Source: Promethearchaeia archaeon (lineage in GTDB: Archaea > Asgardarchaeota > Lokiarchaeia > Sigyniarchaeales > SOKP01). From it: a DNA stretch of 40,026 nt. The stretch's first letter is position 1. Every line of letters begins with the position of its first letter. The notes beneath the pieces are model-generated. The model had not been told where the DNA came from and searched no databases. It saw only the letters and a list, made by a program, of their open reading frames with translations. Below, piece after piece: positions 11,082 to 39,027 of this stretch. Both the position numbers and the translations under genes were made by a program. The stretch covers positions 1-40,026 of the forward strand of contig JAHQWJ010000049.1 of NCBI GenBank assembly GCA_029856125.1, in the 5' to 3' direction.

Positions 11082-12455
11082 ATGCCTTATAAAATCGCTT
11101 TTGATGTAGGACATAAACCCAGAGGTAAACTCGACGAGAATCTCACAGAGTTAAGAGATTTTTTAAACACAAACGATTTTATGTGCTATAATTTTCTGGA
11201 AACTCCAATTACTCATACTTCCCTTGAGCCATTTGATATTTTAGTGTTTGTGTGTCCTGATTTTGCTAAAATTACTTCGATGGAAATAACTGAAATTAAT
11301 AATTGGGTAAGAAATGATGGTGGGGGGTTATTACTTCTTTCACACGCTGGTGGGGACAGGGGTAGAAACAGTAATTTAAGTGAATTAAGTCAAATGTATG
11401 GGATAGTCTTTGAAAATGACCAGGTTTTAGATGAAACTTACAATCTAGGTATGGAAAACATGCCAATAATTACTTCCTTAATACCTCCACACCCTATTAC
11501 AAATAGTATTAGTTCGATTTGTTATAGATCAGGTTGTTCGCTAAGCGTTTTAGGGAATGCTATATCAATAATTTCTTCAAACGAAACTTCTGAACCTTTC
11601 TCTTCGGCTTTAGTCTGTGTTTCTGAACCGGATAAAGGTAGAATTTGCGCCATCGGGAGTTATGAATTATTTAGAGATCGCATAGGGGGAGGCTTCAATA
11701 ACGACGAACATCCAAATTTGGCATATAATATCTTTTCATGGTTGATCTCTGATTATAGAATGGACTTACATTCGAGTGGAACGATCCCTGATATTGTTAC
11801 TAATAAACTTGATTCTGATATCGTTTCTTCGGATTACAATTCAGAAATACCTCAATCGTCATTATTTGGACAGAAGAACGTCGATATCGATTTTTCGATG
11901 AAAATATCGAAAAAAAGTGAGCTAGTAGAATTATTAAAAAAATTTCAAAACCAAATCGACACGATTAAAACTACAATTGATAAACTGATCAAAACAACTG
12001 TAGCATCAGAAAAGGTAATATTTGAGCTTAGTAAACCACCAGAAAATGCTCAAAACAAAGAAAAAAAAGTATTAGATAACTCAAAATCTAATGGTTTAGA
12101 TAAACTACTAGAAAGTAATAATGTCCTAACAGATTTACCTCCAAAGCCAGAAAGTTTAAAAATTAAAGATGAAGACGATTTTATCGGATTACCAAAAATC
12201 GATGACAAAAATAAATTAAAACCTGTTCCAAAAGCAAAAGATAAAAAAAAAGTGAAGAAGAGAGACCTAGTAGCTGAAAAGAAAGCATTAGAGGGTAAAC
12301 TCAATTCGGTTCGAAATTTACTTGAATTTATAGAAAAAAAGCACGATTCTGGACAGATGGATGAAAAATCTTACGAAAAACGCGCTAGTCAACTTAAGAG
12401 TGATTTAATTACTACGCAAAACAAGATCGAAGAAATTGATAAAAAATTAGAATAA
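11082..12455 (+). CDS. GIFT-domain (IFT52/GldG-like) protein with C-terminal coiled coils
   Basis: IAFDVGH, DILVFVCP, GGGLLLLSHAGGD, NLSELSQMYGIVFEND, YRSGCSL, GRICAIGSYELF and NIFSWL follow the IFT52 N-terminal domain pattern. Confidence 0.75.
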   Translation: MPYKIAFDVGHKPRGKLDENLTELRDFLNTNDFMCYNFLETPITHTSLEPFDILVFVCPDFAKITSMEITEINNWVRNDGGGLLLLSHAGGDRGRNSNLSELSQMYGIVFENDQVLDETYNLGMENMPIITSLIPPHPITNSISSICYRSGCSLSVLGNAISIISSNETSEPFSSALVCVSEPDKGRICAIGSYELFRDRIGGGFNNDEHPNLAYNIFSWLISDYRMDLHSSGTIPDIVTNKLDSDIVSSDYNSEIPQSSLFGQKNVDIDFSMKISKKSELVELLKKFQNQIDTIKTTIDKLIKTTVASEKVIFELSKPPENAQNKEKKVLDNSKSNGLDKLLESNNVLTDLPPKPESLKIKDEDDFIGLPKIDDKNKLKPVPKAKDKKKVKKRDLVAEKKALEGKLNSVRNLLEFIEKKHDSGQMDEKSYEKRASQLKSDLITTQNKIEEIDKKLE

Positions 12456-17988: not shown

Positions 17989-18804
17989 CTAGCTTTTTGA
18001 GAATCCTCCATGATGGAATTCGATTTTATAAATAAGTTTCAACTTTTTGCAATAAGCATCTATTTCTGATTCAATAGAATCCCAAAGAGAATGATCATTC
18101 CTGAATTCTTTATATAAGGGTAAGATTTCAGGATATGTCTGTTTTATAACGTTTAAAATTCTTGGAACGTTATGAGGTCTGAAGTTCAAATTTTCAAACA
18201 TATAAGAATCTGTATAGTCCATCGTCTCTTCTATTATCGCTTTATAATTAGTAATTTTTGGAAAAAATGGCGAAATAAAAGTATATGTTTTAATTCCGTT
18301 CTCGTGTATTTCTTTTAAAGCCTCTAATCGCTCTTTTGGTCTTGAAGCCCCTCGTTCAATTAATTGCGCGAATTCGTTATCTAAGGTGCTGATTGAAATG
18401 CCCACTTCAAGATTCTCAAATTTCTTAAATAGATCAATGTCTCTCGTAACAAATTTAGATTTAGTCAAAACTGAGATTTCTGCTTTGGTCCCTATAAGTT
18501 TTTCAAGAATTTTCCGAGTATTTTTATACTTTAACTCTAAAGGAGTGTAGGGGTCAGTTACAGAGCTGAGTAATATTTTTTTTCCATTATATTTTTGTGG
18601 TTTAATTTTATCGAAGTCATAGGTTTTAACATCTAAGAATTCGCCCCATTTATCACCCTTATGTCCCGTAAAACGTATCATGAATTCAGCATAACAATAC
18701 ACACACCCATGTTGGCACCCAACATACGGATTAATGACAAAATCAATTATGGGGATGTTGCTCTTAGTTATTATGCTCTTAGCTTCTCGATAAGTGATAT
18801 TCAT
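17989..18804 (-). CDS. Radical SAM protein, spore-photoproduct-lyase-like family
   Basis: INPYVGCQHGCVYCYA (CxxxCxxC), SSVTDPY, LTKS, RDIDL. Confidence 0.9.
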   Translation of the reverse strand: MNITYREAKSIITKSNIPIIDFVINPYVGCQHGCVYCYAEFMIRFTGHKGDKWGEFLDVKTYDFDKIKPQKYNGKKILLSSVTDPYTPLELKYKNTRKILEKLIGTKAEISVLTKSKFVTRDIDLFKKFENLEVGISISTLDNEFAQLIERGASRPKERLEALKEIHENGIKTYTFISPFFPKITNYKAIIEETMDYTDSYMFENLNFRPHNVPRILNVIKQTYPEILPLYKEFRNDHSLWDSIESEIDAYCKKLKLIYKIEFHHGGFSKS

Positions 18805-18896: not shown

Positions 18897-19091
18897 ATGC
18901 CATTGAAATTATTTGAAAATGATAGAACCAATAAAATCGTCCTCCTTATTATTCTAATAGCATTACTAACTGTTTCGGTTATATTGGTATCTATAGTCGT
19001 AATGTACTTAGTGTCTCTAGAAGAAACCGGAGGAGGATGACCGAGTACATGCAGTATCTACATAAATTTAATTTTAAGAACAATTTTATGA
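18897..19091 (+). CDS. Small single-TM protein: 47 aa if UGA at 19038 is a stop, 64-aa candidate selenoprotein if it is Sec
   Basis: MPLKLFENDRTNK-IVLLIILIALLTVSVILVSIVVMYLV-SLEETGGG-UGA-PSTCSIYINLILRTIL-UGA. SECIS-like hairpin immediately downstream. Absent from the ORF track. Confidence 0.6.
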
Positions 19092-19155
19092 AAAGAATGA
19101 CTTTTGCGAGAAAATCTTAGTCGCAAGATGACTGACCCTGCAAAGGTTCATAAAA
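19084..19155 (+). promoter_or_regulatory. SECIS-like / K-turn RNA structure
   Basis: Lower helix TTTTATGAA (19084-92) / TTCATAAAA (19147-55). Core ATGAC (19097-101) / TGAC (19129-32). Upper helix TTTTGCGA / TCGCAAGA. Loop GAAAATCTTAG. Side hairpin CCT-GCAA-AGG. Confidence 0.6.
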
Positions 19156-19273: not shown

Positions 19274-20077
19274 ATGTCTAGCGAAACTCCCGATAATGTT
19301 AAAACTTCTTTACGTGCGATTGGATTAACAGATTATGAGATTTCAATATATCTCACTTTAATTTCTAAAGGACCTATGGATGCAAGAGAACTTTCTGACG
19401 CAAGTGGCGTTCCATATTCTCGAATTTATAATATTTTGACTCAATTAGAAAAGGAAAAAATGTTCATTCTAAGAGAAGAAAACACTCGTCCATCGACTTA
19501 TTTTGCAAAAAGTCCTGACGAAGTTCTAATTATCGCAAAGAAACACCTAACCGATAATTTTAATAACCACTCAAACAAAATCATCCACATGCTTAAACCT
19601 ATTTACGAATCTCATGACACTCCTATAAAAATTGCCTTATATGTTCACCGAGGACGTGATGTATGTATCAACCGCAGTATTGATCTAATCAATCGGGCTA
19701 AAAACTCTCTTTACTTTGTTGCTCCCTATTATGAGTTTTTAGATGTATTTTTTGACGATGTTAAGAAAGCAAGAGCGAGAGGTGTTATTGATATAAAAAT
19801 GCTTGTTGAAGAAGACGCAATGAAAGACAACAAATTTAAAGAAATTATCGAAAAATATAGTGAAATCTCTGAAATTCGCTCTCGCAATCAAGTATTTGGA
19901 GCAAGCGTAGTAATGGACGAAGGAGAAGATGCATTTATTATCCTGACTCAAGGTTTTTTCAAGGCATTAAGCTATTTCGGCGTAGCTACCGATCATATAG
20001 CCTTTGGACCCGCAAGCAACTTTTATTTTGATTATTTATATAAATCAGCAAAACCATTGAAAAGTAAGACGAAATAA
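19274..20077 (+). CDS. TrmB-family transcriptional regulator
   Basis: IGLTDYEISIYLTL, ARELSDASGVPYSRIYNILTQL, RPSTYFAKSP, followed by an effector domain. Confidence 0.92.
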   Translation: MSSETPDNVKTSLRAIGLTDYEISIYLTLISKGPMDARELSDASGVPYSRIYNILTQLEKEKMFILREENTRPSTYFAKSPDEVLIIAKKHLTDNFNNHSNKIIHMLKPIYESHDTPIKIALYVHRGRDVCINRSIDLINRAKNSLYFVAPYYEFLDVFFDDVKKARARGVIDIKMLVEEDAMKDNKFKEIIEKYSEISEIRSRNQVFGASVVMDEGEDAFIILTQGFFKALSYFGVATDHIAFGPASNFYFDYLYKSAKPLKSKTK

Positions 20078-25740: not shown

Positions 25741-26097
25741 ATGAGAAAAGTTGGCGAAGGCTTGTCATGTTCATCTAAATCAGAGGTTACAGGAAATTTA
25801 GTCTATGTTACTAAGATTGAAGACGTGATTGATCTATTTGATAAAGCAAAAGATAAAATATGTTTGGTACACGACGCAGGGATGACAACTCTAGGGCCGA
25901 TTTTATCAGATTTAGCTGGTACTATTTGTACTACGGGTGGGGCTGGTTCCCACTTAGCTATTATCTCGAGAGAGTTTGGAATCCCTTGTATCATGGGAAT
26001 TAAAATCTCTACTAACGAGATCCCATCGCTAATCGATAAAAAAGTAAAAATTACGCACGATGGAGAAGATAAAGGCTTTTTACATGTTGAAGATTAA
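25741..26097 (+). CDS. Stand-alone PEP-utilising enzyme mobile (phospho-His swivel) domain
   Basis: GTICTTGGAGSHLAIISREFGIPCIMG. Confidence 0.92.
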   Translation: MRKVGEGLSCSSKSEVTGNLVYVTKIEDVIDLFDKAKDKICLVHDAGMTTLGPILSDLAGTICTTGGAGSHLAIISREFGIPCIMGIKISTNEIPSLIDKKVKITHDGEDKGFLHVED

Positions 26098-26136
26098 GTC
26101 CTTGGTTAATAATAAGAAAGTCTTTACAATTACATT

Positions 26137-27114
26137 ATGGAATATATAACAAGTTTAAAAGAAGGTAAAGAGGATCCTCGTCTTTTTGGAGGGAAAGCAT
26201 CTAACCTTTTTACATTAATTAAAAATGAGATAAATGTCCCTCCCGGATATGCTATAAGTACTAAAGCTTTCACATTGTTCCTCGAAGAATCTCACATTAA
26301 ACCTATCATTAAAGAAATTTTTGCGAAAGAGTATAACCCGAAAGAAGTAATTGAAATTTCAACAAAGATCAAGAATTTATTCTTAGCTTCTGATATACCA
26401 TCAAATATAACCTCAGAGATACAACAAAATCATAGCAAAGAATTTACAGATATCGATGAGCATAGATCTTATGTAGTTAGATCATCGGCTAATTATGAAG
26501 ACTCAAATAGTTTTTCGTTCGCTGGACAAGCTCAATCGTTTCTCAACATCAGAAGCATCACAGAAATCATTTTATCGATAAAAATGTGTTGGGCTTCTTT
26601 GTTTTCTCCTCAAATTCTATTATATCTTTTACAATTAAAAAAAAGAGGATTCAATATTACTCCTCTGAATTTAGAAATGGCGATTGTAGTTCAAAAAATG
26701 TTAAAACCTCAAGTTTCAGGCGTATTATTCACTGCAAATGTAATCAACAACAATAAAGAACAGATGATGATTAATTCTACCTGGGGTCTAGGGGAAACAA
26801 TCACCAACAATACAATTATTCCCGATTTAATAATAATAAAGAAAGGTAATTGCGAAGTAATGAAAATTTCAATTGGAAAAAAAGAAAAAACTTCTATTGC
26901 TAATCCAAAAGGTGATTCTACTATTCTTATTAACACTGAAAGAAAATTTCAGGAAGAGTGCTCTTTAAATTTAACACAACTTAAGCAAATTCATAATTTA
27001 GGCTTAAAGTTAGAAGAGCTTTTTAATTATCCTCAGGATATTGAATGGGCAATAGAAAACAACTCATTATATGCTTTACAGTCGCGACCTATCACAACGC
27101 TGCCAAAAAACTAA
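26137..27114 (+). CDS. Stand-alone PEP-synthase/PPDK N-terminal ATP-grasp domain protein
   Basis: GGKASNL, VPPG, VRSSANYED..SFAGQ, CWASLF, VVQKM, SGVLFT, WGLGE, PQDIEWA, LQSRPIT, then stop. Confidence 0.92.
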   Translation: MEYITSLKEGKEDPRLFGGKASNLFTLIKNEINVPPGYAISTKAFTLFLEESHIKPIIKEIFAKEYNPKEVIEISTKIKNLFLASDIPSNITSEIQQNHSKEFTDIDEHRSYVVRSSANYEDSNSFSFAGQAQSFLNIRSITEIILSIKMCWASLFSPQILLYLLQLKKRGFNITPLNLEMAIVVQKMLKPQVSGVLFTANVINNNKEQMMINSTWGLGETITNNTIIPDLIIIKKGNCEVMKISIGKKEKTSIANPKGDSTILINTERKFQEECSLNLTQLKQIHNLGLKLEELFNYPQDIEWAIENNSLYALQSRPITTLPKN

Positions 27115-28103: not shown

Positions 28104-31100
28104 ATGCCCATTTTACCTGCATCTGATCCTCTTGAGATTAATTGGACTACCTCGACTTGGGGCGCAGATAACGTTCCTGACAAGTTTGAGTCTTATTACA
28201 TTAGAGGAGACGGATACGAAGAAAGGGGTAGTAATTTTGACAAAACTATCGAAATTAAGATCTCCAACCGATTTAGTTTATATCACGATTATTTAAAGAC
28301 CGATTACTCTCAGAGATACGACGGAGGTAGCACGATCTTTAAAGTTGAAGGCGTTTTTGTAACTCCTCCCGACGGACAAGTGTTTTACACTTCCGATAGA
28401 ACAGCGTTCATGAGCTCCGAAGCTAAAACTTCCGGTCATTATCTCTTCTACGATAGCGATCAGAACGGATTTTACGAAACGGTGTTCGTGTTAAGTCCCG
28501 ATCAAGACGCCGACGGACAATATAACGTAATCTCTATCGGCTACAACTACGATGGAAAGCACGGTTTTATCCCTTACCAAATAATTGAAGAAACCACGCA
28601 ATCAAGCACCTATTACCCGCTAGTTGCTAGTAGCGGAGTCCATCGTACTATGACGAAGACGATAGACAAAAAGTTCCCTGACGAGTTCACGAGCGATGTG
28701 CCCGCAAAAGACCACATTTTCGAAATCTCTAAATTAATTAAAAAATCAGACCAAGTTGAGATGATGCCAGAATTATTTTACGAAGTCTACGAAAGACAAT
28801 ACGCAGACGCTTGGACAGATTACGGTTTAATAAAAGTAAGTTCTATCGTTGAACAAATCGCTATGACATTAACAGCGGGAACAGCTTCTGCCGCATTTAT
28901 TGCCGGCGTTGCTGCAGCATGGGCTCCATACGCAGCGCCATTAGTATTTGCCGGAGTATATTTCTTGTTATCATGGGTAAACAGCGAAGAAAAAGCAAAA
29001 ACTGCTAAAGCTCTGAATGACGCAAGAACTTACTATCCGAGCGATGGTGATTTCAGCGAACCTACGTCTTTAAGCAAAAAGACCGCGAGCGATAGGCTTT
29101 TTGACGATTCTTTAGCCGCATACAACCAAGGACATCCAGGTGCGTATTACGCCACCGTAATCGGAGGTGAACCGGGAAACATGTTCACGGGACAGATAAT
29201 GGTTACTCCTCCGAATTCCATGGGGGACATTAAAGCCCTAATTAGTTCCTACGAACATTATGTTAAAGATTACGAAATATACGCAAGCGGGTTAAACCGA
29301 GAAAATAGAGTTGGTGAAGTTTCAGAAGATCATTTAGATAATGTGTATAGCTGGTATTTAGAAGACGCTAGAAATTCGTTTGAAAACAATTTAGATTACT
29401 TTATTCTATCCAGCGACCTTCCTTCCTACAACGGAAAAGAGTTTTACTCGTTTAACGCTGGTATATCGGACTTCAGAGACGCTTTGATAAACTATTATCG
29501 ATACAACACTTTAGGGTATTTGGAAAACGAGATCGAGGGCGTATCAGGGGGAGAATTCAACGCAATCAGACCGATGAACATTAATGGAATTCCACAATAT
29601 AGATACGTAAGCACGAAAGACGACATTATCAGCACCACCCAACCCTTATCTCCGTTATATGGCCCAATAGTCGTCAGCCAAGATACATACGACTCGCTCG
29701 AGGTTGAGGACGCTAAAATATCGGTGAAAACTCAAGTTGCTTACTCAGAAAGCTCCGAGGGTATCGACACCACCGCTTTAGATTTGTTAGAACTTACAAA
29801 ATATAAAGCTAAGATTCCACTTTCTGAAAGGAAATTTGCTTACGATGTAAGTTTAGTTACGGTTGACGTGGTAAAGATTGTAATGGTCAAAGTTTATGAA
29901 TCTAATTATTTCCACGATTATTGGTATTGGGAAAAAACTTACGAACTGCTTGATTCGTATTCCTTAGAATTATCTCCTGACGATTATTGTCTTGAAGGAG
30001 GTAATTTATATTTCTTCGAAACGCTCGAAGAACTAACGTTTGGCTCTCGAGAAAATTTCGATTCCATATGGGACGGAGAAGACGCTTTATTATTTAACGT
30101 TAACATTAACTTCCCTATTATAATACCTGACACCTTAACTGACGTTATAACCTATACCACTGGTTCTGATATAGGTAGAATAAATACATTTTTAGATTCA
30201 GGAGAATTTGTAAACGCAGAAATAATGGTTCTCGATACAACTACTAACGATTTTGCAAAAAACGCTTTAGCGCAGACCACTCAACACGCAATAAACGATT
30301 ACTTCAATCTTTACACCGTAGCGGCTACCAACGCCCTATCACAAGCAGAGCTCGATTTTACCATAGAGATTACGTTCTGGTCTACTTTAATTTCGTCCGC
30401 AATTCTTCTACCGGGTTCGATCGCAGCACAGGCGTCGAGAATGCCACTAGCAGGTCTCGCAGCTCAACTTCCGAAGCTCGTGGCAAAACAATTGATAGCG
30501 CTCAGTACAGCTCCGATAGCGGAAATAATAGAAGAAGTATACGTCGATTCCTTTATCGAAGCGTGGATAGAAGGTCAAATTGCTATTCTCGGCGGGGACG
30601 AACAACTCGCACGATTCCTTTCGATGCTCGTAACTTCCTTAAGAGAAGCCTCGAACACTGGAATAGACATAGTAGTGGGCGCGTTTAGTTCAGACACCTC
30701 GTCCGATATAGCCACACAAAGAGCAGATTTAATTCAAGACACTAAACTCTCTTGGAAATCTTTGGTAAGCCCCGAAATTGTGGTCGGAGTTTCGCTGGCA
30801 GCCCTCAGTTTTGCGTCCGGCAACGCAGCTTTCGGAACAGGTTTCCTTGGCGGCGTTTTTACTGACACGCTCGGAATTCCCGTTGAGGAATATATTAATA
30901 TTCATACCGCTAAACAACAACTCCTCAAAGTAGATAATCAAATAACAGATATTAAATCTGAAGCGGTAAAAGCTTTAGACTTTATTTCGCAAAGGTACAC
31001 TCAACCAATCAACGTTCCAGCTACGATTAGATCTAGTACAATTGTAGATGTAGTAGCTCATACTCAAGCGTTATCTACTTATTCCTCTGTAATGAACGAG

Positions 31101-34100
31101 TTTTACGAAGAGACCTTACAAAATCAATTTTTAACAAAAGAAACTCAAGAAGAAAAACTCAAATTAATTGAATTTAAACAAGAATCATTAGGTGAATTAG
31201 AAAATACTAAAGATGTTCAGAATTCGATCGAGAGTCAAGTGCAAGATAGTCTTGGACTTGAACCTGTTGTTGCAGATTTTAGTAATGCCCCTGAAATCAT
31301 AAATAAGGTTTTAGCAGAATTATATGATCCTCGTATCAGGGTGCTGGGTAAAGGTTACGACATTGATTTTTTAAGACTGGATATTCCAAGCATTCTGGAG
31401 GTCGGAAATGCTGAAGCCTGGCTCAAAGATGAATTTAATCTAAAAAACAAGGTTAAATTATACTACGGTCGGGACGATTTAGCTACGTTAGTATTCAAGT
31501 ACATTGCTGATGATCCAAAGCGCGCAAATAAGCCTATAACACTTTCTGCTCTTTTAACATGGCTCGATTATAGCTTGAGCGAAGAACTATATATTGTCGA
31601 AGTTGACAGTTCTGGGGATAGGATTCAAGATTCAGATGAGATTGATCCTGCTACCGGAGTGAAGTTTGGCCCAGTTATTGCCAAATCACTGTCAGCAGCT
31701 AAATGGAGGATAACTCAGCAACATGGTAATTCCCAGATAACAGGCAAAGATAGTAATATTAAGACAAGATTTCCCGGCTATTGGGAAATTAGAATAATGT
31801 GGAGCTCCTATTATTCTGGCGGTTTTAATTTCGATCAAATGGGATACACTCTTGAAGATATTAAAGCGTTGGACGATCTTTACAATGAGCTAATTCACCC
31901 TTTAAGTGTTAGCTTTTTGAAAGGAAATGGATTATATGAAGACAATTTACCCTTCGATATTGAAAATTTCAAAGATCAGTTTAAAGAAATTTTTTACGAC
32001 TTAAAATTCTTAGCAGAAGAAGTTACTGATAAGATAACTACGAGCGGAGATAAAGACGAGGACGAGCGAAGACTTGCTGAGTGGAAAGAGTTAATAGAAG
32101 CTACTTATAGAATTGTATGCGAACCAGCATTTTCTGGAACAACTTCATCAGACTTCTTTAAGATTGTCATGGAACGGATCAGATTTACAGTATTAGATAC
32201 GGTTATGAGGAGTAAAATTCTCGTAGATAAAAGCTCCTCCAGTGGCGGTCCTAGTGTTTACGAAGTAGCAACTAAGATAAGAAGTTTTTTAAACAATAAA
32301 CAAAAGGTAGGAGACGTAAACGCAGACGTTTTAAGTGCCAATGGAAGAATGGCTTTCTTTACTTTCTTCAGCGAAGCTTTTTTTGATGACTCTCAGGGTA
32401 AGAAATTAAAAATTTCTACAGAACTAAGGAGGGTAGTAGGAAGAGACCAAGAGGCTTCAGACTATTTTGGGGATTTAATACAAAGATATGTTGATACATT
32501 TGTTTCAAGCGGTTTTTCATTTGTTGGTTTTATAGACGCATTTAACTACGGTCTCGGGGATGTTCTTGGAGGTAATGAATTTCTTGGCGGTCAAATGTCT
32601 GAAATCGAGAACTCTATGCTAGGAATTGACATCTCTGAAATCTCTAAATGGGCTCCTTCAGATCGACGGTTTTTTGATAACTTAGTAGCAATCTTTTTAA
32701 ATGCTTACTTAGCCAACCCGACTAAAGGAACTATGGATCCTAAAGGGATATCTGGTTCCCAAAGAGGTGAAGCTTCTAATGATTGGATCTCCGGTCAATT
32801 TATGACTGTGTTACTTGAAATGTCAAAAGTTGATGCTAAAATTCGCGATATATTACCTTATCTAATTACTGTCGCCGCTCCCTCAAACAATCCTACTTCG
32901 ACGTTAAAATCATTAATGAATTACGTGGCCAAAAAGGGGAGTTTCGACATGTTTAGGAACGGAAAAGAAGGTGCAAAACTAAAAATGCCTTCCAAATATA
33001 CTTTTCTTTTTGAATTTGCAAATTATTTAAATGCTGAAATAGACCTAACAAGCGTTGTTGATGGAGATTTAAACACCGCCGTACAAAGAGTCCAAGATTA
33101 TATAAATAATAACGAAGAGGAAATTACGAGGGAGATGAAAAAATTAGCTAAGGGAATCTATACTTCCCACGAGACTATCAAACCACAGTTTTACCAAGCT
33201 ATTGTTCAATTTTTTACGAGCGAAACTAAGCTAGAATCTTTGTTAAGGAGCCGTATAGATGGAGGTTACGATTTAGCCTTTAAAGATTTTGTAAATATGT
33301 TATTTAAACAAGATGTCGACGGAACTACTAGACAATTAACTCCCGCAATCCTTCCTTCCGATATTGAGATTTGGGACGGCGATAAATGGATCGCTCTTCC
33401 TTACGAATACAAGTTCGATTCTGCTCACGTAATGGTACACTACAGGGGTAGTTCTGGTGAAATTAAGAACGGTATTTTGAAAGTCGATACAATTAGTACT
33501 ACGTTGCCTGATGGCGTTTACGAGGGGTATTACGACCGTACTAGAAAAACTAATAATGTTTATCATAACATTTATTTGTGCGATTCCAACGGAAAACAAC
33601 TCTTTAGCGAGGTAAAACTTCGTCTCGAAACAGGAAAAAAGACTAAATTCGAAGTGAGGAGGAAAGTGGATAAGCATGAATGGTACGAGCAATTTGTAGA
33701 TCAAGTGTCAAAAAATCCAATCAAATCATTCTATATTTCCTTTGGTATTTCTTCCGGAAATCAATTTACTTTCTTTTTACAAGACACAGTATTGTCTATG
33801 AGCGCCAACTCCAAAAGTTATGAGCGATACCTAGTCGATCTTAAATTTAAGGAGAGGTCTAAGGTAACTTCTGAAGGACCTCTTTTAGGTTTAAATATTC
33901 AAGAAGATCTTTACTTTAGAATAAACTCTATACTCGGTTTTCTATATCAATTGGAACAATTTAGCCAGACGGGAGAAGATATTTTTATATCTGAAAGAAT
34001 GGTTCAATTAGAAGGTAAATTAGCTCCCTCTGGAGAGCAATTCTCATTCGATTATTATCAGAAGGTTTTAACGGAATTATCTCCAAGTAACATTGACTTA

Positions 34101-35789
34101 AAGAATTTAGATATCTCAGATACAAAAATTTACTATGAAACATTGTTAAAGATTTTAAAGAATGCGATAGGGAATGAGTTTTTCAAAGATTACAAATCTC
34201 TTAAGCTCATAGAAGGAAAAGAATTTTCATCTGGTGTTGAATTAGTTGTTGATAGTCAAAATGACGATCTTATGCTAATTGTAAAAGTTAACCAAGTATT
34301 GAAAGAGATTATGGGATTCTCAGGGAGCATACTGTTTAAGTTAGGATTTCTAAATTTCGAAAAGTTAGCCACCAATTCTTATGTAGTGAAAGCTATGGGG
34401 CAAACCTACGACAACTTTCTCAAATTTATGAGAAGAGCTAACATTGAATCTATATTCACTCCTACTTCTTATTCTACAATACAAGAACTTATTTCATCCA
34501 TAATGTTTGTGGGTTATAAGGAGACCATTAAGATCAAAAAGGATGGATCTCCCGAATTCAGAGTTATTAATTACGAGCAAAGAACTTCAATCTTATCTGA
34601 TTTATACGACAAAGATATAGTTTTGACATCTCTGGATAACAAATATATAATGATTAATAATTTTCTGGATACTTTTTACGCCGAATACAAAAGGGAAGCC
34701 GATTTATCTCAAATTGGTCGAGCTCTATCAATAGTTTTAGATTCACAATTTAGCGACCAGACAACTGATCAACTAATTAGATTGGGTATGGATCCTCGGC
34801 ATGTAAATTCATTCCGAACAATGGCTTACAACTGTCTGAATAAATACTTATTCTCCGCTGCAGACTATGGAGGAGATCCCCAACAAGATTATGCAGTCAG
34901 GTTTAGAGAAAAGCTTTCAGAATTTATTAGCACTGAGGGCATTTCTGTCAAATTAAATTTACAAGCGTTAAGGGTGCCATTGGCAGATTATTTAAGAGCA
35001 TACCCTATTCCGGGTTTGACTTTAGAGATGTTATTTGACATATTTGCTACCATAAATTTAGATAAATCCGATTACGATAATCTCTTCAAACAGTTTGAAG
35101 GTTATAAGGTTACAAAACACATATTAGCAACCGGAGATAAAGGTTGGAGACATCAGCCTGACTATATTTTTAGAACACGGATTGATCACATTATAAGCCT
35201 TGCTAACTTTTTTGCTTACATGGCAAAGACTTATGGAGGGACGAACCAAAAAGTCAGGATTTATGGTTATTCTTTGAAGAGGGAAGGACTTGGTTACAAG
35301 ACATCCAACGTAAACGCGTATTTCCCTAAAATCAACGCTCAAATTCAAGATCCGAACATGCCAAAAAATAATTTACAATACTTCGAACTTGACTTTAACA
35401 ATTTAGATCAGTTTGATTTTATATTGTTTTTAGGGTCGTTCTTAGCAGATGAGCAAACCTTCGTGGTTAAAACAAATGGAATGGAGGGAAACGAGTTTTT
35501 ATTTGCTTTTAATGCCGTAAGCGGAGCTATAGATATTGGAGACATTTATCCAAGCCTTCGGAGCGACGAAGTAAAACCTTGTTCTATGGATGATTTCAAC
35601 GCTGGTCTTAAATGGTCAGACGATATCGCACACAACGATTTAGAAACCCTTTTCAATTCTATAATGAACGCATTTAAGCAAGATAACTTCGTAACTGTGC
35701 ATAGGTATAATGAGATTGAAGTCTGGAGAGAATATTGCGAGAAAGTATCCGCGTTAAAAGATTTCTCTACCCTCGTAAATACTCAGTAA
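28104..35789 (+). CDS. Giant hypothetical protein (at least 2561 aa); frame open from 27867, possibly 5'-truncated
   Basis: 7.7-kb stop-free frame. DxDxNG/DxDxDG motifs (YDSDQNG, DQDADG) and three hydrophobic Ala/Gly-rich segments. Confidence 0.9.
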   Translation: MPILPASDPLEINWTTSTWGADNVPDKFESYYIRGDGYEERGSNFDKTIEIKISNRFSLYHDYLKTDYSQRYDGGSTIFKVEGVFVTPPDGQVFYTSDRTAFMSSEAKTSGHYLFYDSDQNGFYETVFVLSPDQDADGQYNVISIGYNYDGKHGFIPYQIIEETTQSSTYYPLVASSGVHRTMTKTIDKKFPDEFTSDVPAKDHIFEISKLIKKSDQVEMMPELFYEVYERQYADAWTDYGLIKVSSIVEQIAMTLTAGTASAAFIAGVAAAWAPYAAPLVFAGVYFLLSWVNSEEKAKTAKALNDARTYYPSDGDFSEPTSLSKKTASDRLFDDSLAAYNQGHPGAYYATVIGGEPGNMFTGQIMVTPPNSMGDIKALISSYEHYVKDYEIYASGLNRENRVGEVSEDHLDNVYSWYLEDARNSFENNLDYFILSSDLPSYNGKEFYSFNAGISDFRDALINYYRYNTLGYLENEIEGVSGGEFNAIRPMNINGIPQYRYVSTKDDIISTTQPLSPLYGPIVVSQDTYDSLEVEDAKISVKTQVAYSESSEGIDTTALDLLELTKYKAKIPLSERKFAYDVSLVTVDVVKIVMVKVYESNYFHDYWYWEKTYELLDSYSLELSPDDYCLEGGNLYFFETLEELTFGSRENFDSIWDGEDALLFNVNINFPIIIPDTLTDVITYTTGSDIGRINTFLDSGEFVNAEIMVLDTTTNDFAKNALAQTTQHAINDYFNLYTVAATNALSQAELDFTIEITFWSTLISSAILLPGSIAAQASRMPLAGLAAQLPKLVAKQLIALSTAPIAEIIEEVYVDSFIEAWIEGQIAILGGDEQLARFLSMLVTSLREASNTGIDIVVGAFSSDTSSDIATQRADLIQDTKLSWKSLVSPEIVVGVSLAALSFASGNAAFGTGFLGGVFTDTLGIPVEEYINIHTAKQQLLKVDNQITDIKSEAVKALDFISQRYTQPINVPATIRSSTIVDVVAHTQALSTYSSVMNEFYEETLQNQFLTKETQEEKLKLIEFKQESLGELENTKDVQNSIESQVQDSLGLEPVVADFSNAPEIINKVLAELYDPRIRVLGKGYDIDFLRLDIPSILEVGNAEAWLKDEFNLKNKVKLYYGRDDLATLVFKYIADDPKRANKPITLSALLTWLDYSLSEELYIVEVDSSGDRIQDSDEIDPATGVKFGPVIAKSLSAAKWRITQQHGNSQITGKDSNIKTRFPGYWEIRIMWSSYYSGGFNFDQMGYTLEDIKALDDLYNELIHPLSVSFLKGNGLYEDNLPFDIENFKDQFKEIFYDLKFLAEEVTDKITTSGDKDEDERRLAEWKELIEATYRIVCEPAFSGTTSSDFFKIVMERIRFTVLDTVMRSKILVDKSSSSGGPSVYEVATKIRSFLNNKQKVGDVNADVLSANGRMAFFTFFSEAFFDDSQGKKLKISTELRRVVGRDQEASDYFGDLIQRYVDTFVSSGFSFVGFIDAFNYGLGDVLGGNEFLGGQMSEIENSMLGIDISEISKWAPSDRRFFDNLVAIFLNAYLANPTKGTMDPKGISGSQRGEASNDWISGQFMTVLLEMSKVDAKIRDILPYLITVAAPSNNPTSTLKSLMNYVAKKGSFDMFRNGKEGAKLKMPSKYTFLFEFANYLNAEIDLTSVVDGDLNTAVQRVQDYINNNEEEITREMKKLAKGIYTSHETIKPQFYQAIVQFFTSETKLESLLRSRIDGGYDLAFKDFVNMLFKQDVDGTTRQLTPAILPSDIEIWDGDKWIALPYEYKFDSAHVMVHYRGSSGEIKNGILKVDTISTTLPDGVYEGYYDRTRKTNNVYHNIYLCDSNGKQLFSEVKLRLETGKKTKFEVRRKVDKHEWYEQFVDQVSKNPIKSFYISFGISSGNQFTFFLQDTVLSMSANSKSYERYLVDLKFKERSKVTSEGPLLGLNIQEDLYFRINSILGFLYQLEQFSQTGEDIFISERMVQLEGKLAPSGEQFSFDYYQKVLTELSPSNIDLKNLDISDTKIYYETLLKILKNAIGNEFFKDYKSLKLIEGKEFSSGVELVVDSQNDDLMLIVKVNQVLKEIMGFSGSILFKLGFLNFEKLATNSYVVKAMGQTYDNFLKFMRRANIESIFTPTSYSTIQELISSIMFVGYKETIKIKKDGSPEFRVINYEQRTSILSDLYDKDIVLTSLDNKYIMINNFLDTFYAEYKREADLSQIGRALSIVLDSQFSDQTTDQLIRLGMDPRHVNSFRTMAYNCLNKYLFSAADYGGDPQQDYAVRFREKLSEFISTEGISVKLNLQALRVPLADYLRAYPIPGLTLEMLFDIFATINLDKSDYDNLFKQFEGYKVTKHILATGDKGWRHQPDYIFRTRIDHIISLANFFAYMAKTYGGTNQKVRIYGYSLKREGLGYKTSNVNAYFPKINAQIQDPNMPKNNLQYFELDFNNLDQFDFILFLGSFLADEQTFVVKTNGMEGNEFLFAFNAVSGAIDIGDIYPSLRSDEVKPCSMDDFNAGLKWSDDIAHNDLETLFNSIMNAFKQDNFVTVHRYNEIEVWREYCEKVSALKDFSTLVNTQ

Positions 35790-36585: not shown

Positions 36586-39027
36586 TTGGAAGTTAAAATC
36601 ATGGCTGAATTCATGGTTAACAGGCATATCACGCTAAAGTTAGAAGGCCATAGTACCAACATCTATATAAATGGAATGGAATTTATGCAATGCAAAAGGT
36701 TAGTTCTTAACATTCCTATAAAAGGTATAAGATTATACGACGACATTGATTCTATCGACGAGGCTTCTGAGTATTACGACCACTACCTTTTAGAACACGA
36801 AATTCACGAAGAGAGGGACGGACGATTAATAGAGAAATATTACGATCACCAATACGAGATTTCGTACGAAGCGGAATTCTGGGCTCATTGTAGCAATCTT
36901 CAAACTTGGAGTGAACACGGATACGACACGCGAATTCTGAAGACGGATTTAGCCTTTCCTTTACTAAAAAGATTGACTGAAGTCGGAGATTCGCTAGCAA
37001 AAAAAGCGTTTAAAGAAGAAATCGCTAAAAAGATAGAAACGGGGTATGCTCCTGTCATAATATATTTGATCAAAGAGAAGTATCTTAATTATCTGGAAGA
37101 CGAAGAACTAAAAAGCGTGGTTAACGATCCTACAAAAAATATCGTAACATTCATTCTCAAATCCCTAACTTCCTCTAACAATGAAACACAAAACGCAGCT
37201 CTCACACTAAGTAGATATTTAAACGAACACCTACAACAAAAAATCGTATCGTTTTTACTTAATCATGGAGATATAATCAAAAAATCGCGTTATCTAAAAA
37301 GCGACGAAATGAGACCAATTTTTCGTCAAATTGTGATTGAAGAATTCAGGTCAAAAAAATTCAACACAATAAAAAAAGGGGCTGCGCTATTTTGGTTAAA
37401 AATGTACATTGACGATTTCAAGAGTAGGGACGAAGAAGCCAAAGAGTTGATAAAAAGTTATGTCAAGGAAGTTTTTAGAATTGGTAGAAGAGAGGAGTTT
37501 TCGTCTTTAATTACAGGCAACTATCTCTCCGTACTAGCCAGCGAAGAATTACGCGTGTTAATCTCAACTTCGCAAAATTCTTTTATTAAAACTTGTATCG
37601 GTGTAATAAAATCTGAAACTTCGAGTAATAGAAAAATTCATTTAATGAAAAATATAATTAAGATACTTTTAAAAGCAAGAGATATAACTATTCTCGATCT
37701 CGTTGACACCCAATTACAAAAGAAAATCGAGTCTCCTAACTATTTTAGTGACCTTGAGCTAAAGATGTTTGAGGATGTTAACTTACTTCATGCTACTTTT
37801 CCAGAGAAAAGTGAAGATTTTTTGGGAAGCAACGCCCAAGAACTCGTTTCTTTATTGGAAGAAAAGATTGATACACGTTTTTTGACACTAGAGCTCTTAC
37901 AAGCAAAACTTGAGCTCATAGGCTCGGAAGTTATCAAACCAATTTTCAAAGTTTTATGTAGAACCAATAACCACGCTGATAGTTGGGATAGAAAGGACCA
38001 TTATTCTAGCGTGTTAATAAATAATATCGATTTTGAGCCATCTATAATAAAAGAAAAATTTTTCAACTACATTAAATCGCACCGTTTAACTTTGTCCGAA
38101 CACGAATATTTCTTTAAAGGCTTTGGACACACTAACCTTTCAAGAGAAGAATTTTGGGGCATCTTTGAATACGGCGAACATATAGTCGCCCTTGAAAAAA
38201 CTTTAGGGTTTATCGCGTGGCCTGAGAGTCAGACAAATTCCGAAGACGGTGTTAATGTAAGAGTTACTATCGAAAAAGATGTTATCACTAGGTTAAAAAT
38301 TTACGGACTAACCGAGTACGCCGATGTGGGACCGATGGTAACCTTACCTCAGTGTATTAAAGAAATTAAATCGCTTGAGGAATTAGATGTCGAAAGCTCT
38401 GGGATGTTCCATGTTCCTGAATGGATTGATCAATTACCCAATTTAAAAGTAATTAAGTTTGGGGGTAATGGTTTGCGCTCGATCCCTGAGACTATTGGAA
38501 ACCTTAAATTATTAAAAGTATTAGATTTGCAAGTTAGTCACATTCACAAGCTTCCCAAATCAATATGCAACCTTAAAAACTTAAAAAACTTAAATTTAGC
38601 GACTGCAAAACTCCAAAAACTACCTAAAGATATTGGGAACTTGAAGGACCTTAAAGTTTTAGATTTGCATGATAATAAGATAGCAGCACTTCCTAGTAAT
38701 ATTGGAAATTTACATAACTTAGAATATTTGGATTTATCTAGAAACCCTAATTGCTACGACATTCCCGATATGTTCGAACAATTAAGAGAGTTAAAAGTTT
38801 TAAGCCTAAGGGGTCTTAAATTCACACAAGTCCCCGAGACTATTAAACATTTGGCTAACCTTAAAAAACTTAGTTTAAGTTATTGTACTAACTTAACCGA
38901 AATACCCGAATGGATTTCTGAACTTACCAATCTTGAAGAACTAGATTTGCGTGGGACTAATTTAGCAAAAATTCCCGCATCAGTAAAAACTCTCGAAAAA
39001 ATTTTGAAGATATTAAGGCTGAATTGA
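36586..39027 (+). CDS. LRR protein with a Lokiarchaeia-type N-terminal domain (likely start ATG at 36601)
   Basis: N-terminal ITLKLE..TNIYI..F.QCK.L, EFWAHCSNLQ.W, DTR.L...LAFPLLKRL motifs. C-terminal 23-24-aa LRRs (IPETIGNLKLLKVLDL). Confidence 0.9.
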   Translation: MEVKIMAEFMVNRHITLKLEGHSTNIYINGMEFMQCKRLVLNIPIKGIRLYDDIDSIDEASEYYDHYLLEHEIHEERDGRLIEKYYDHQYEISYEAEFWAHCSNLQTWSEHGYDTRILKTDLAFPLLKRLTEVGDSLAKKAFKEEIAKKIETGYAPVIIYLIKEKYLNYLEDEELKSVVNDPTKNIVTFILKSLTSSNNETQNAALTLSRYLNEHLQQKIVSFLLNHGDIIKKSRYLKSDEMRPIFRQIVIEEFRSKKFNTIKKGAALFWLKMYIDDFKSRDEEAKELIKSYVKEVFRIGRREEFSSLITGNYLSVLASEELRVLISTSQNSFIKTCIGVIKSETSSNRKIHLMKNIIKILLKARDITILDLVDTQLQKKIESPNYFSDLELKMFEDVNLLHATFPEKSEDFLGSNAQELVSLLEEKIDTRFLTLELLQAKLELIGSEVIKPIFKVLCRTNNHADSWDRKDHYSSVLINNIDFEPSIIKEKFFNYIKSHRLTLSEHEYFFKGFGHTNLSREEFWGIFEYGEHIVALEKTLGFIAWPESQTNSEDGVNVRVTIEKDVITRLKIYGLTEYADVGPMVTLPQCIKEIKSLEELDVESSGMFHVPEWIDQLPNLKVIKFGGNGLRSIPETIGNLKLLKVLDLQVSHIHKLPKSICNLKNLKNLNLATAKLQKLPKDIGNLKDLKVLDLHDNKIAALPSNIGNLHNLEYLDLSRNPNCYDIPDMFEQLRELKVLSLRGLKFTQVPETIKHLANLKKLSLSYCTNLTEIPEWISELTNLEELDLRGTNLAKIPASVKTLEKILKILRLN

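Follow-up and report, generated by a model that had tools for sequence, protein, structure and literature searches.

The DNA analysed here, referred to as the window, is a stretch of 40,026 nucleotides from a lokiarchaeal metagenome-assembled genome (G000; Promethearchaeota), and the feature under study is a very small gene on its forward strand that lies between a divergent radical SAM gene and a gene for a TrmB-family regulator (Table 1). An ATG opens a run of 47 codons that leads to a first in-frame TGA, beyond which the frame continues through P-S-T-C and 12 further residues to a second TGA. The coordinates and anatomy laid out in the original prediction, i.e., a short N-terminal tail, one hydrophobic helix and EETGGG in a frame with two TGA codons, are thereby confirmed. 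The same prediction described the gene as missing from the open reading frames; the full read-through frame does exist, but a plain ORF finder lists the 47-aa form ended at the first UGA. In public annotation, the relatives of this gene are likewise truncated at the UGA and named “hypothetical protein.” The best 19-residue hydropathy of the helix is 3.2, its uncharged stretch equals the family median of 28 residues, and the length of the linker varies widely across relatives. Elsewhere in the window, all on the forward strand, are a 457-aa protein with a match to the IFT52 GIFT domain (11082-12455, E 6e-13), two stand-alone domain genes in succession, for a PEP-utiliser mobile domain and for a PPDK N-terminal domain (25741-27114), which diverge from a group of genes that encode unknown, Fe-S and peptidase S15 proteins, an ORF of 2561 aa that matches no Pfam model at E 0.001 (28104-35789), and an 813-aa leucine-rich-repeat protein (36586-39027).

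Table 1. Positions of the micro-selenoprotein candidate, its RNA elements and its neighbours in the window.
Feature	Position	Strand	Basis or remark
Radical SAM gene, divergent	17989..18804	-	Neighbour in closest relatives only
Predicted micro-selenoprotein gene	18897..19091	+	64 aa with first UGA read as Sec
Basic N-terminal tail, residues 1-13, predicted cytoplasmic	18897..18935	+	Positive-inside rule
Predicted single transmembrane helix or signal anchor, residues 14-41	18936..19019	+	28 uncharged residues
Linker EETGGG, acidic, Gly-rich	19020..19037	+	Family linker mean 2.4 D/E vs 0.27 K/R
In-frame UGA, putative selenocysteine 48	19038..19040	+	UGA conservation
P-S-T-C with putative partner Cys52 at +4	19041..19052	+	Low pN/pS, in-frame Cys excess
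Hydrophobic tail, weak constraint	19053..19088	+	pN/pS 0.84 for codons +5..+11
Predicted lower helix, 19084-92 with 19147-55, closing three-way junction	19084..19155	+	Family duplex energies
Predicted true stop, UGA, 8 nt upstream of SECIS core	19089..19091	+	Locus L010 has TAA at same position
lokiSECIS type I: AUGA core, 8-bp stem, 11-nt A-rich loop ending AG, GA	19097..19132	+	8/8 pairs covary
Small 3' side hairpin, CCU-GCAA-AGG core at 19137-19146	19133..19150	+	3/4 pairs compensatory
TrmB-family regulator, downstream	19274..20077	+	Pfam TrmB

The published definition of the lokiSECIS calls for a 9-bp stem between an AUGA and a GA, closed by a loop of 11 nt that starts with adenines and ends with G (Mariotti 2016, PMC4989117). 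At the window locus, an AUGA that is invariant in the family alignment (19097-19100) begins 56 nt after the first TGA, as had been predicted, and precedes a stem formed by 19102-09 and 19121-28, an A-rich loop of 11 nt with AG as its last bases, and N-GA. All sequence and structure features of the definition are present when a core-adjacent C-U juxtaposition beyond the eight pairs is counted as the ninth stem position. In 41 family elements, all eight stem pairs have changed on both sides, and stem positions are paired in 93.6-97% of cases vs 36-49% in slid controls. The hairpin, first described as SECIS-like and resembling the eukaryotic type, is thus a lokiSECIS-type element. Its strict pattern occurs at 14 sites in G000 and at 2 in the reversed genome, and the majority of the 14 sit behind known selenoprotein genes, which places the hairpin above chance. 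A covariance model derived from the family hairpins recovers 10 sites in G000 at E<2e-6, including those behind mvhD, prxL and vhuU, and Rfam gives no match to the hairpin. Free folding finds the region more stable than shuffles (z -2.8) and leaves the stem undrawn because the GA/GA core is beyond the folding program's model.

Two further structures surround this element. The small hairpin on its 3' side also lies behind most SECIS of other selenoprotein genes in G000, and the accessible text of the papers on lokiarchaeal SECIS contains no description of it (PMC4989117, PMC11227280). The predicted AU-rich lower helix is supported family-wide, the duplex with the own partner reaching -5.8 kcal/mol vs -3.6 +/- 0.2 kcal/mol for swapped partners, and is weak within the genus (only -2.6); at the window locus, its assignment is tentative. 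The type I SECIS observed in G000 on contigs C8, C18, C82, C112, C122, C124, C129, C142, and C148 mostly have the small 3' hairpin as well, and many are closed by a lower helix, which suggests a three-way junction. The second TGA falls in the 5' strand of this predicted helix. Its reading as the stop can be accepted, but the original placement within the SECIS stem cannot, since it lies outside the covarying stem. A requirement for at least 50 nt between UGA and SECIS does not hold for the family either: members of another order have a UGA-AUGA spacing of 34-36 nt.

Searches with the read-through peptide and with profiles derived from it recovered homologues across the whole genus and in the majority of the family's genera; within the class, they also reached three genomes that belong to a different order. 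At all 81 inspected loci (71 genomes), the UGA is kept, even where protein identity falls to 15-25%, and a strict-pattern SECIS follows 34-122 nt downstream at 77 of them; the genomes being related, these counts are not independent trials. One paralogue in addition to the 81 has Cys for Sec (locus L205, genome G236). As the 81 loci were chosen by similarity, two controls free of that choice were added. Among 78 trmB loci, the 33 with an upstream SECIS are the same 33 that have a TGA micro-ORF, the two never occurring apart, and 13 of 13 metagenome contigs retrieved with a pattern that leaves the codon free carry TGA and SECIS. For comparison, TGA accounts for 320 of the 2361 stops of long ORFs in G000, and the true stops of the family are TAA (56), TGA (18), and TAG (7), neither TAA nor TAG having been found at the position of the first UGA in the loci examined. 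Coding constraint extends past the UGA over the first four codons (pN/pS 0.33 for codons +1..+4, vs 0.72 and 1.21 out of frame) and then fades; a Cys codon lies within the first five codons in frame at 57 loci, vs 2 and 14 in the other frames. The tail ranges from 1 to 61 aa and its length is correlated with the distance between UGA and SECIS (rho 0.81), so that most of it probably serves as a spacer to the SECIS. An amphipathic tail helix, also considered, is unsupported by the tail analysis.

Gene callers that terminate at the first UGA in effect treat it as the ordinary stop of a 47-aa membrane peptide, with a hairpin that is vestigial or serves another gene, and the fading of constraint past four codons would suit them. 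This is extremely unlikely: TAA or TAG is never exchanged for the codon in the examined loci, an in-frame Cys, purifying constraint and a covarying SECIS lie beyond it, upstream there is no other UGA-containing frame of note, and trmB is uninterrupted. From the invariance of the UGA in all three samples, the constraint past it and the covarying hairpin, we consider it highly probable that the first UGA is recoded to Sec by the 3' lokiSECIS, yielding the 64-aa product first proposed. The homologues agree with what that proposal named as support, with TGA, or once Cys, at codon 48, coding sequence past it and a hairpin downstream, and with conservation that continues after GGG.

The source genome encodes most of the machinery that such recoding would use. 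SepSecS is present, as are two SelD, each with an in-frame TGA, and a PSTK-like kinase (E 2e-49, yet below the curated cut-off). A tRNA-Sec with a UCA anticodon, located by blastn from relatives, lies upstream of SepSecS (C101:1261-1406, minus strand); ARAGORN and the Rfam tRNA-Sec model miss it because two inserts split the gene, at a point after the anticodon and within the T arm. In some genus members, the tRNA-Sec gene is uninterrupted. EFSec was not found in G000 and is present in four of four relatives; since the G000 counterpart of its neighbour in the relative G007 begins at a contig end, the gene is probably missing through an assembly gap. The machinery anticipated by the original prediction is thus there except for this factor. 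Known selenoproteins with in-frame TGA in G000 comprise MvhD, HdrA, VhuU, and PrxL. On contig C124, upstream of position 2466 (minus strand), an hdrA frame has four UGAs in the 1.35 kb read and is followed by mvhD with two UGAs and a shared SECIS, as described for Lokiarchaeota. The lokiarchaeal VhuU, HdrA-VhuD and PrxL genes use the same type I lokiSECIS signal as the new family and share with it the location of the SECIS, where the coding sequence ends and a UGA stop often stands near the core (PMC4989117, PMC11227280). Unlike these known selenoproteins, members of the new family are predicted to be membrane-anchored and have no globular domain, and their UGA-SECIS distance goes down to 34 nt.

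Several other candidate selenoprotein genes were observed. A 147-codon frame with two adjacent UGAs (HAD-U-U-ADN; G000:C122:12109-12549, minus strand, equivalent to L321:210-650) is conserved beyond the UGAs, with a lokiSECIS about 120 nt downstream, and has a paralogue at G000:C112:44042-44497. Two or three TGA codons are carried by 45 of its 46 matches, in 36 of 42 genomes of the genus, the ten inspected loci all combine tandem UU with a SECIS, and no NCBIfam model matches; this is probably a second undescribed selenoprotein family. A further micro-ORF (G000:C8:48149-48352, minus strand) encodes two helices, carries its single UGA in the loop and is accompanied by a SECIS; it has homologues with TGA in three other genomes of the genus, and similar ORFs occur in G229. 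At G000:C148:27094-27320 (minus strand), a 37-codon ORF that contains two CxxC pairs ends in a UGA, and a SECIS-like element lies 40 nt beyond it; read-through would yield U-G-A-L-C. In a closed genome of family f2, tandem UU (KG-U-U-GI) occurs in a small ORF that has a perfect lokiSECIS (G044:C1:2668700-2669100, minus strand; L268) and looks, by eye, HesB/IscA-like.

The basic flank of a membrane helix is, by the positive-inside rule, cytoplasmic. The ten residues before the helix average 4.1 K/R vs 0.9 D/E in the family, and the N-terminal side is more basic than the linker in 81 of 81 members; on this charge bias and the rule, the peptide is predicted to lie N-in/C-out, with Sec outside the membrane. 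The orientation bears on the SelK/SelS-like layout ascribed to the protein at the outset, and on the reading that makes it a genuine archaeal homologue of eukaryotic SelK/SelS, or their precursor, with Sec on a tail in the cytosol. The likeness to SELENOS and SELENOK lies in small size, a single membrane pass and a Sec placed in a flexible segment that contains Gly. The single helix stands near the N-terminus as in SelK/SelS, a Gly-rich segment precedes Sec, the host is an Asgard lineage, and in a few members Sec is near the C-terminus. In SelS, however, the N-terminus is lumenal and the Sec tail cytosolic, and Sec188 pairs with Cys174 (PMC3628699). Sec is penultimate in SelS; in the new family, it comes about 6-30 residues after the helix and is followed by a variable tail, of 16 residues in the window and of 1-2 residues in only five members. 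No SelK or SelS model is among the Pfam matches listed for 25 members, nor among the best 25 of 74 weak families for 47 members, the long basic Gly/Pro-rich cytosolic region is missing, and the phylum-wide searches did not find the family outside the class. Homology is thus very unlikely, and with the opposite predicted topology and no such model among the matches listed, the resemblance is loose and the protein is not to be grouped with SelK/SelS; the family gives no support for an archaeal origin of either. A further likeness, to the FeoB-associated Cys-rich membrane protein (PF12669), consists in tiny size and a lone helix with a Gly/Cys-rich segment behind it. That model matches only 3 of 47 members, the best at E 0.14 among the matches listed, PF12669 has a Cys cluster where the new family has one Sec/Cys pair, and no feoB neighbour was seen.

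With a basic N-region, a hydrophobic region and, in most members, GG just before Sec, the helix could also be taken for a cleavable signal peptide from which a short, RiPP-like selenopeptide is released, possibly by a cut after GG. A hydrophobic stretch of 28 residues is long for a cleaved signal, however, many members are without GG before U, the product would be only 2-3 residues in some of them, and processing or export genes are not linked at the loci; release of such a peptide is quite unlikely.

A Cys lies within five residues of Sec in 75 of the 81 members, at positions from -5 to +4. The arrangement is UxC in 41, UxxxC in 13, UC in 3, and Cys upstream of U in 18, and there is no nearby Cys in 6. 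The UxxxC motif put forward for the protein is thus that of a subclade and not of the family, in which UxC is the commonest form; in the window's subclade, position +2 is Ser or Asn and Cys is at +4, with no insertion. On the family tree, a rough one built on few columns that include the Cys itself, the Cys position changes 13 times, and UxxxC must have arisen at least twice. A nearby Cys that appears selected while its spacing is not fixed suggests loose chemistry, as in a surface redox buffer or a soft-metal-reactive arm, more than a docking enzyme; the six members without Cys and the tails of such unequal length fit loose chemistry and not a defined enzyme. The same free geometry, Cys-less members and dispensable tail would also suit a real selenoprotein that serves as a selenium sink, store or sacrificial scavenger and does not cycle, as would the several paralogues per genome in one genus. 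CcdA/DsbD was not found in G000, which counts in the same direction and leaves re-reduction of an external Se-S bond unexplained in that genome. A single Sec per chain nevertheless makes a poor store, and the repeated regain of a nearby Cys suggests a selected Se-S pair, so that a sink or store is unlikely.

The surroundings of the gene vary. Only in this genus is trmB its usual neighbour; other genera have unrelated neighbours, upstream genes differ, and locus L021 has another gene between the micro-ORF and trmB. The same-strand trmB downstream in about 30 loci and the barely constrained tail might indicate a leader or regulatory peptide that senses selenium and, by its read-through, controls the gene behind it, here trmB. 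The closest relatives of this TrmB protein (69-94% identity) are mostly from Promethearchaeota/Promethearchaeia (Lokiarchaeia). Variable neighbours and the inserted gene favour a stand-alone gene over such a leader; in other genera, the downstream genes are unrelated or convergent, and a sensor would require neither a membrane helix nor a compensated Cys. A leader function is accordingly rated as distinctly unlikely, and trmB is probably not part of a unit with the micro-selenoprotein. Gene context at the family loci indicates no partner protein. A paralogue lineage with Cys upstream of Sec (L061, L063, L203, L204, L221; five loci) lies between a Trm112-like gene and a convergent ccdA/dsbD gene.

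A large survey names seven Asgard selenoprotein families, i.e., SelD, FrhA/VhuU, HdrA, FrhD/VhuD, Prx-like, AhpF-N, and DsbA-like (Huang 2024, PMC11227280), and a 2026 review counts 11 archaeal families with no small membrane peptide among them (PMC13188914). Among the Pfam and NCBIfam matches listed, none is to a domain of the seven Asgard families and none defines a family for the new protein, only generic transmembrane matches being returned. The family is absent from the archaeal and Asgard lists of 2016, 2024 and 2026 as far as their accessible text extends, in keeping with its presentation from the start as a membrane selenoprotein new to archaea. No description of it was found in the literature covered, which mostly excludes subscription papers; the decoding system is already known, and the protein family is new relative to that literature. 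The Asgard survey searched outward from known families (PMC11227280), and such queries would miss one for which Cys homologues are nearly lacking. Profile and pattern searches across the phylum yielded no convincing member beyond the class: of 30 loci retrieved by pattern, only known members had the helix, and other profile matches, mostly helices within long open frames, were rejected. These queries found no member in family f2, including three closed genomes, where SECIS searches are insensitive and the result is not proof of absence; the membership of candidate loci L029 and L216 from family f4 is uncertain. Viral contigs gave no match to the family, and a 697-aa protein that clustered with one member proved to be an unrelated helicase.

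Taken together, these observations are best accommodated by a stand-alone gene in which the ribosome would insert Sec at codon 48 at the direction of the 3' lokiSECIS and would terminate at the second UGA, too near the SECIS to be recoded, as proposed for other lokiarchaeal genes. The peptide would insert as a single-pass type II protein, N-in/C-out, and its acidic, Gly-rich and flexible tether would carry Sec, in most members together with a neighbouring Cys, on the outer side of the membrane. For such a fold-free arm at the cell surface, a redox or soft-metal-reactive role is the most likely, with cycling between selenol/thiol and selenenylsulfide, or an intermonomer diselenide in members without Cys. 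Our assessment leans modestly in favour of this reading as a whole, function included, on what are so far genomic data.

A broader proposal, which we hold tentatively and rate as somewhat less than probable, is that Lokiarchaeia evolved a class of domain-less membrane selenopeptides, independently of or before eukaryotes, that comprises this family, its paralogues and a second, two-helix family, brings selenium to the cell surface for extracytoplasmic redox or metal handling, and supplies, in archaea related to eukaryotes, a natural ruler of how close UGA and SECIS may be (Sec from 34 nt upwards, stop at up to 18 nt). The natural series of UGA-SECIS spacings could serve as a test of how a eukaryote-like SECIS functions without SBP2. 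If the family is real, the Asgard selenoproteome has been undercounted, archaea gain a class of membrane selenoproteins, and selenium chemistry would take place on the outer face of the membrane.
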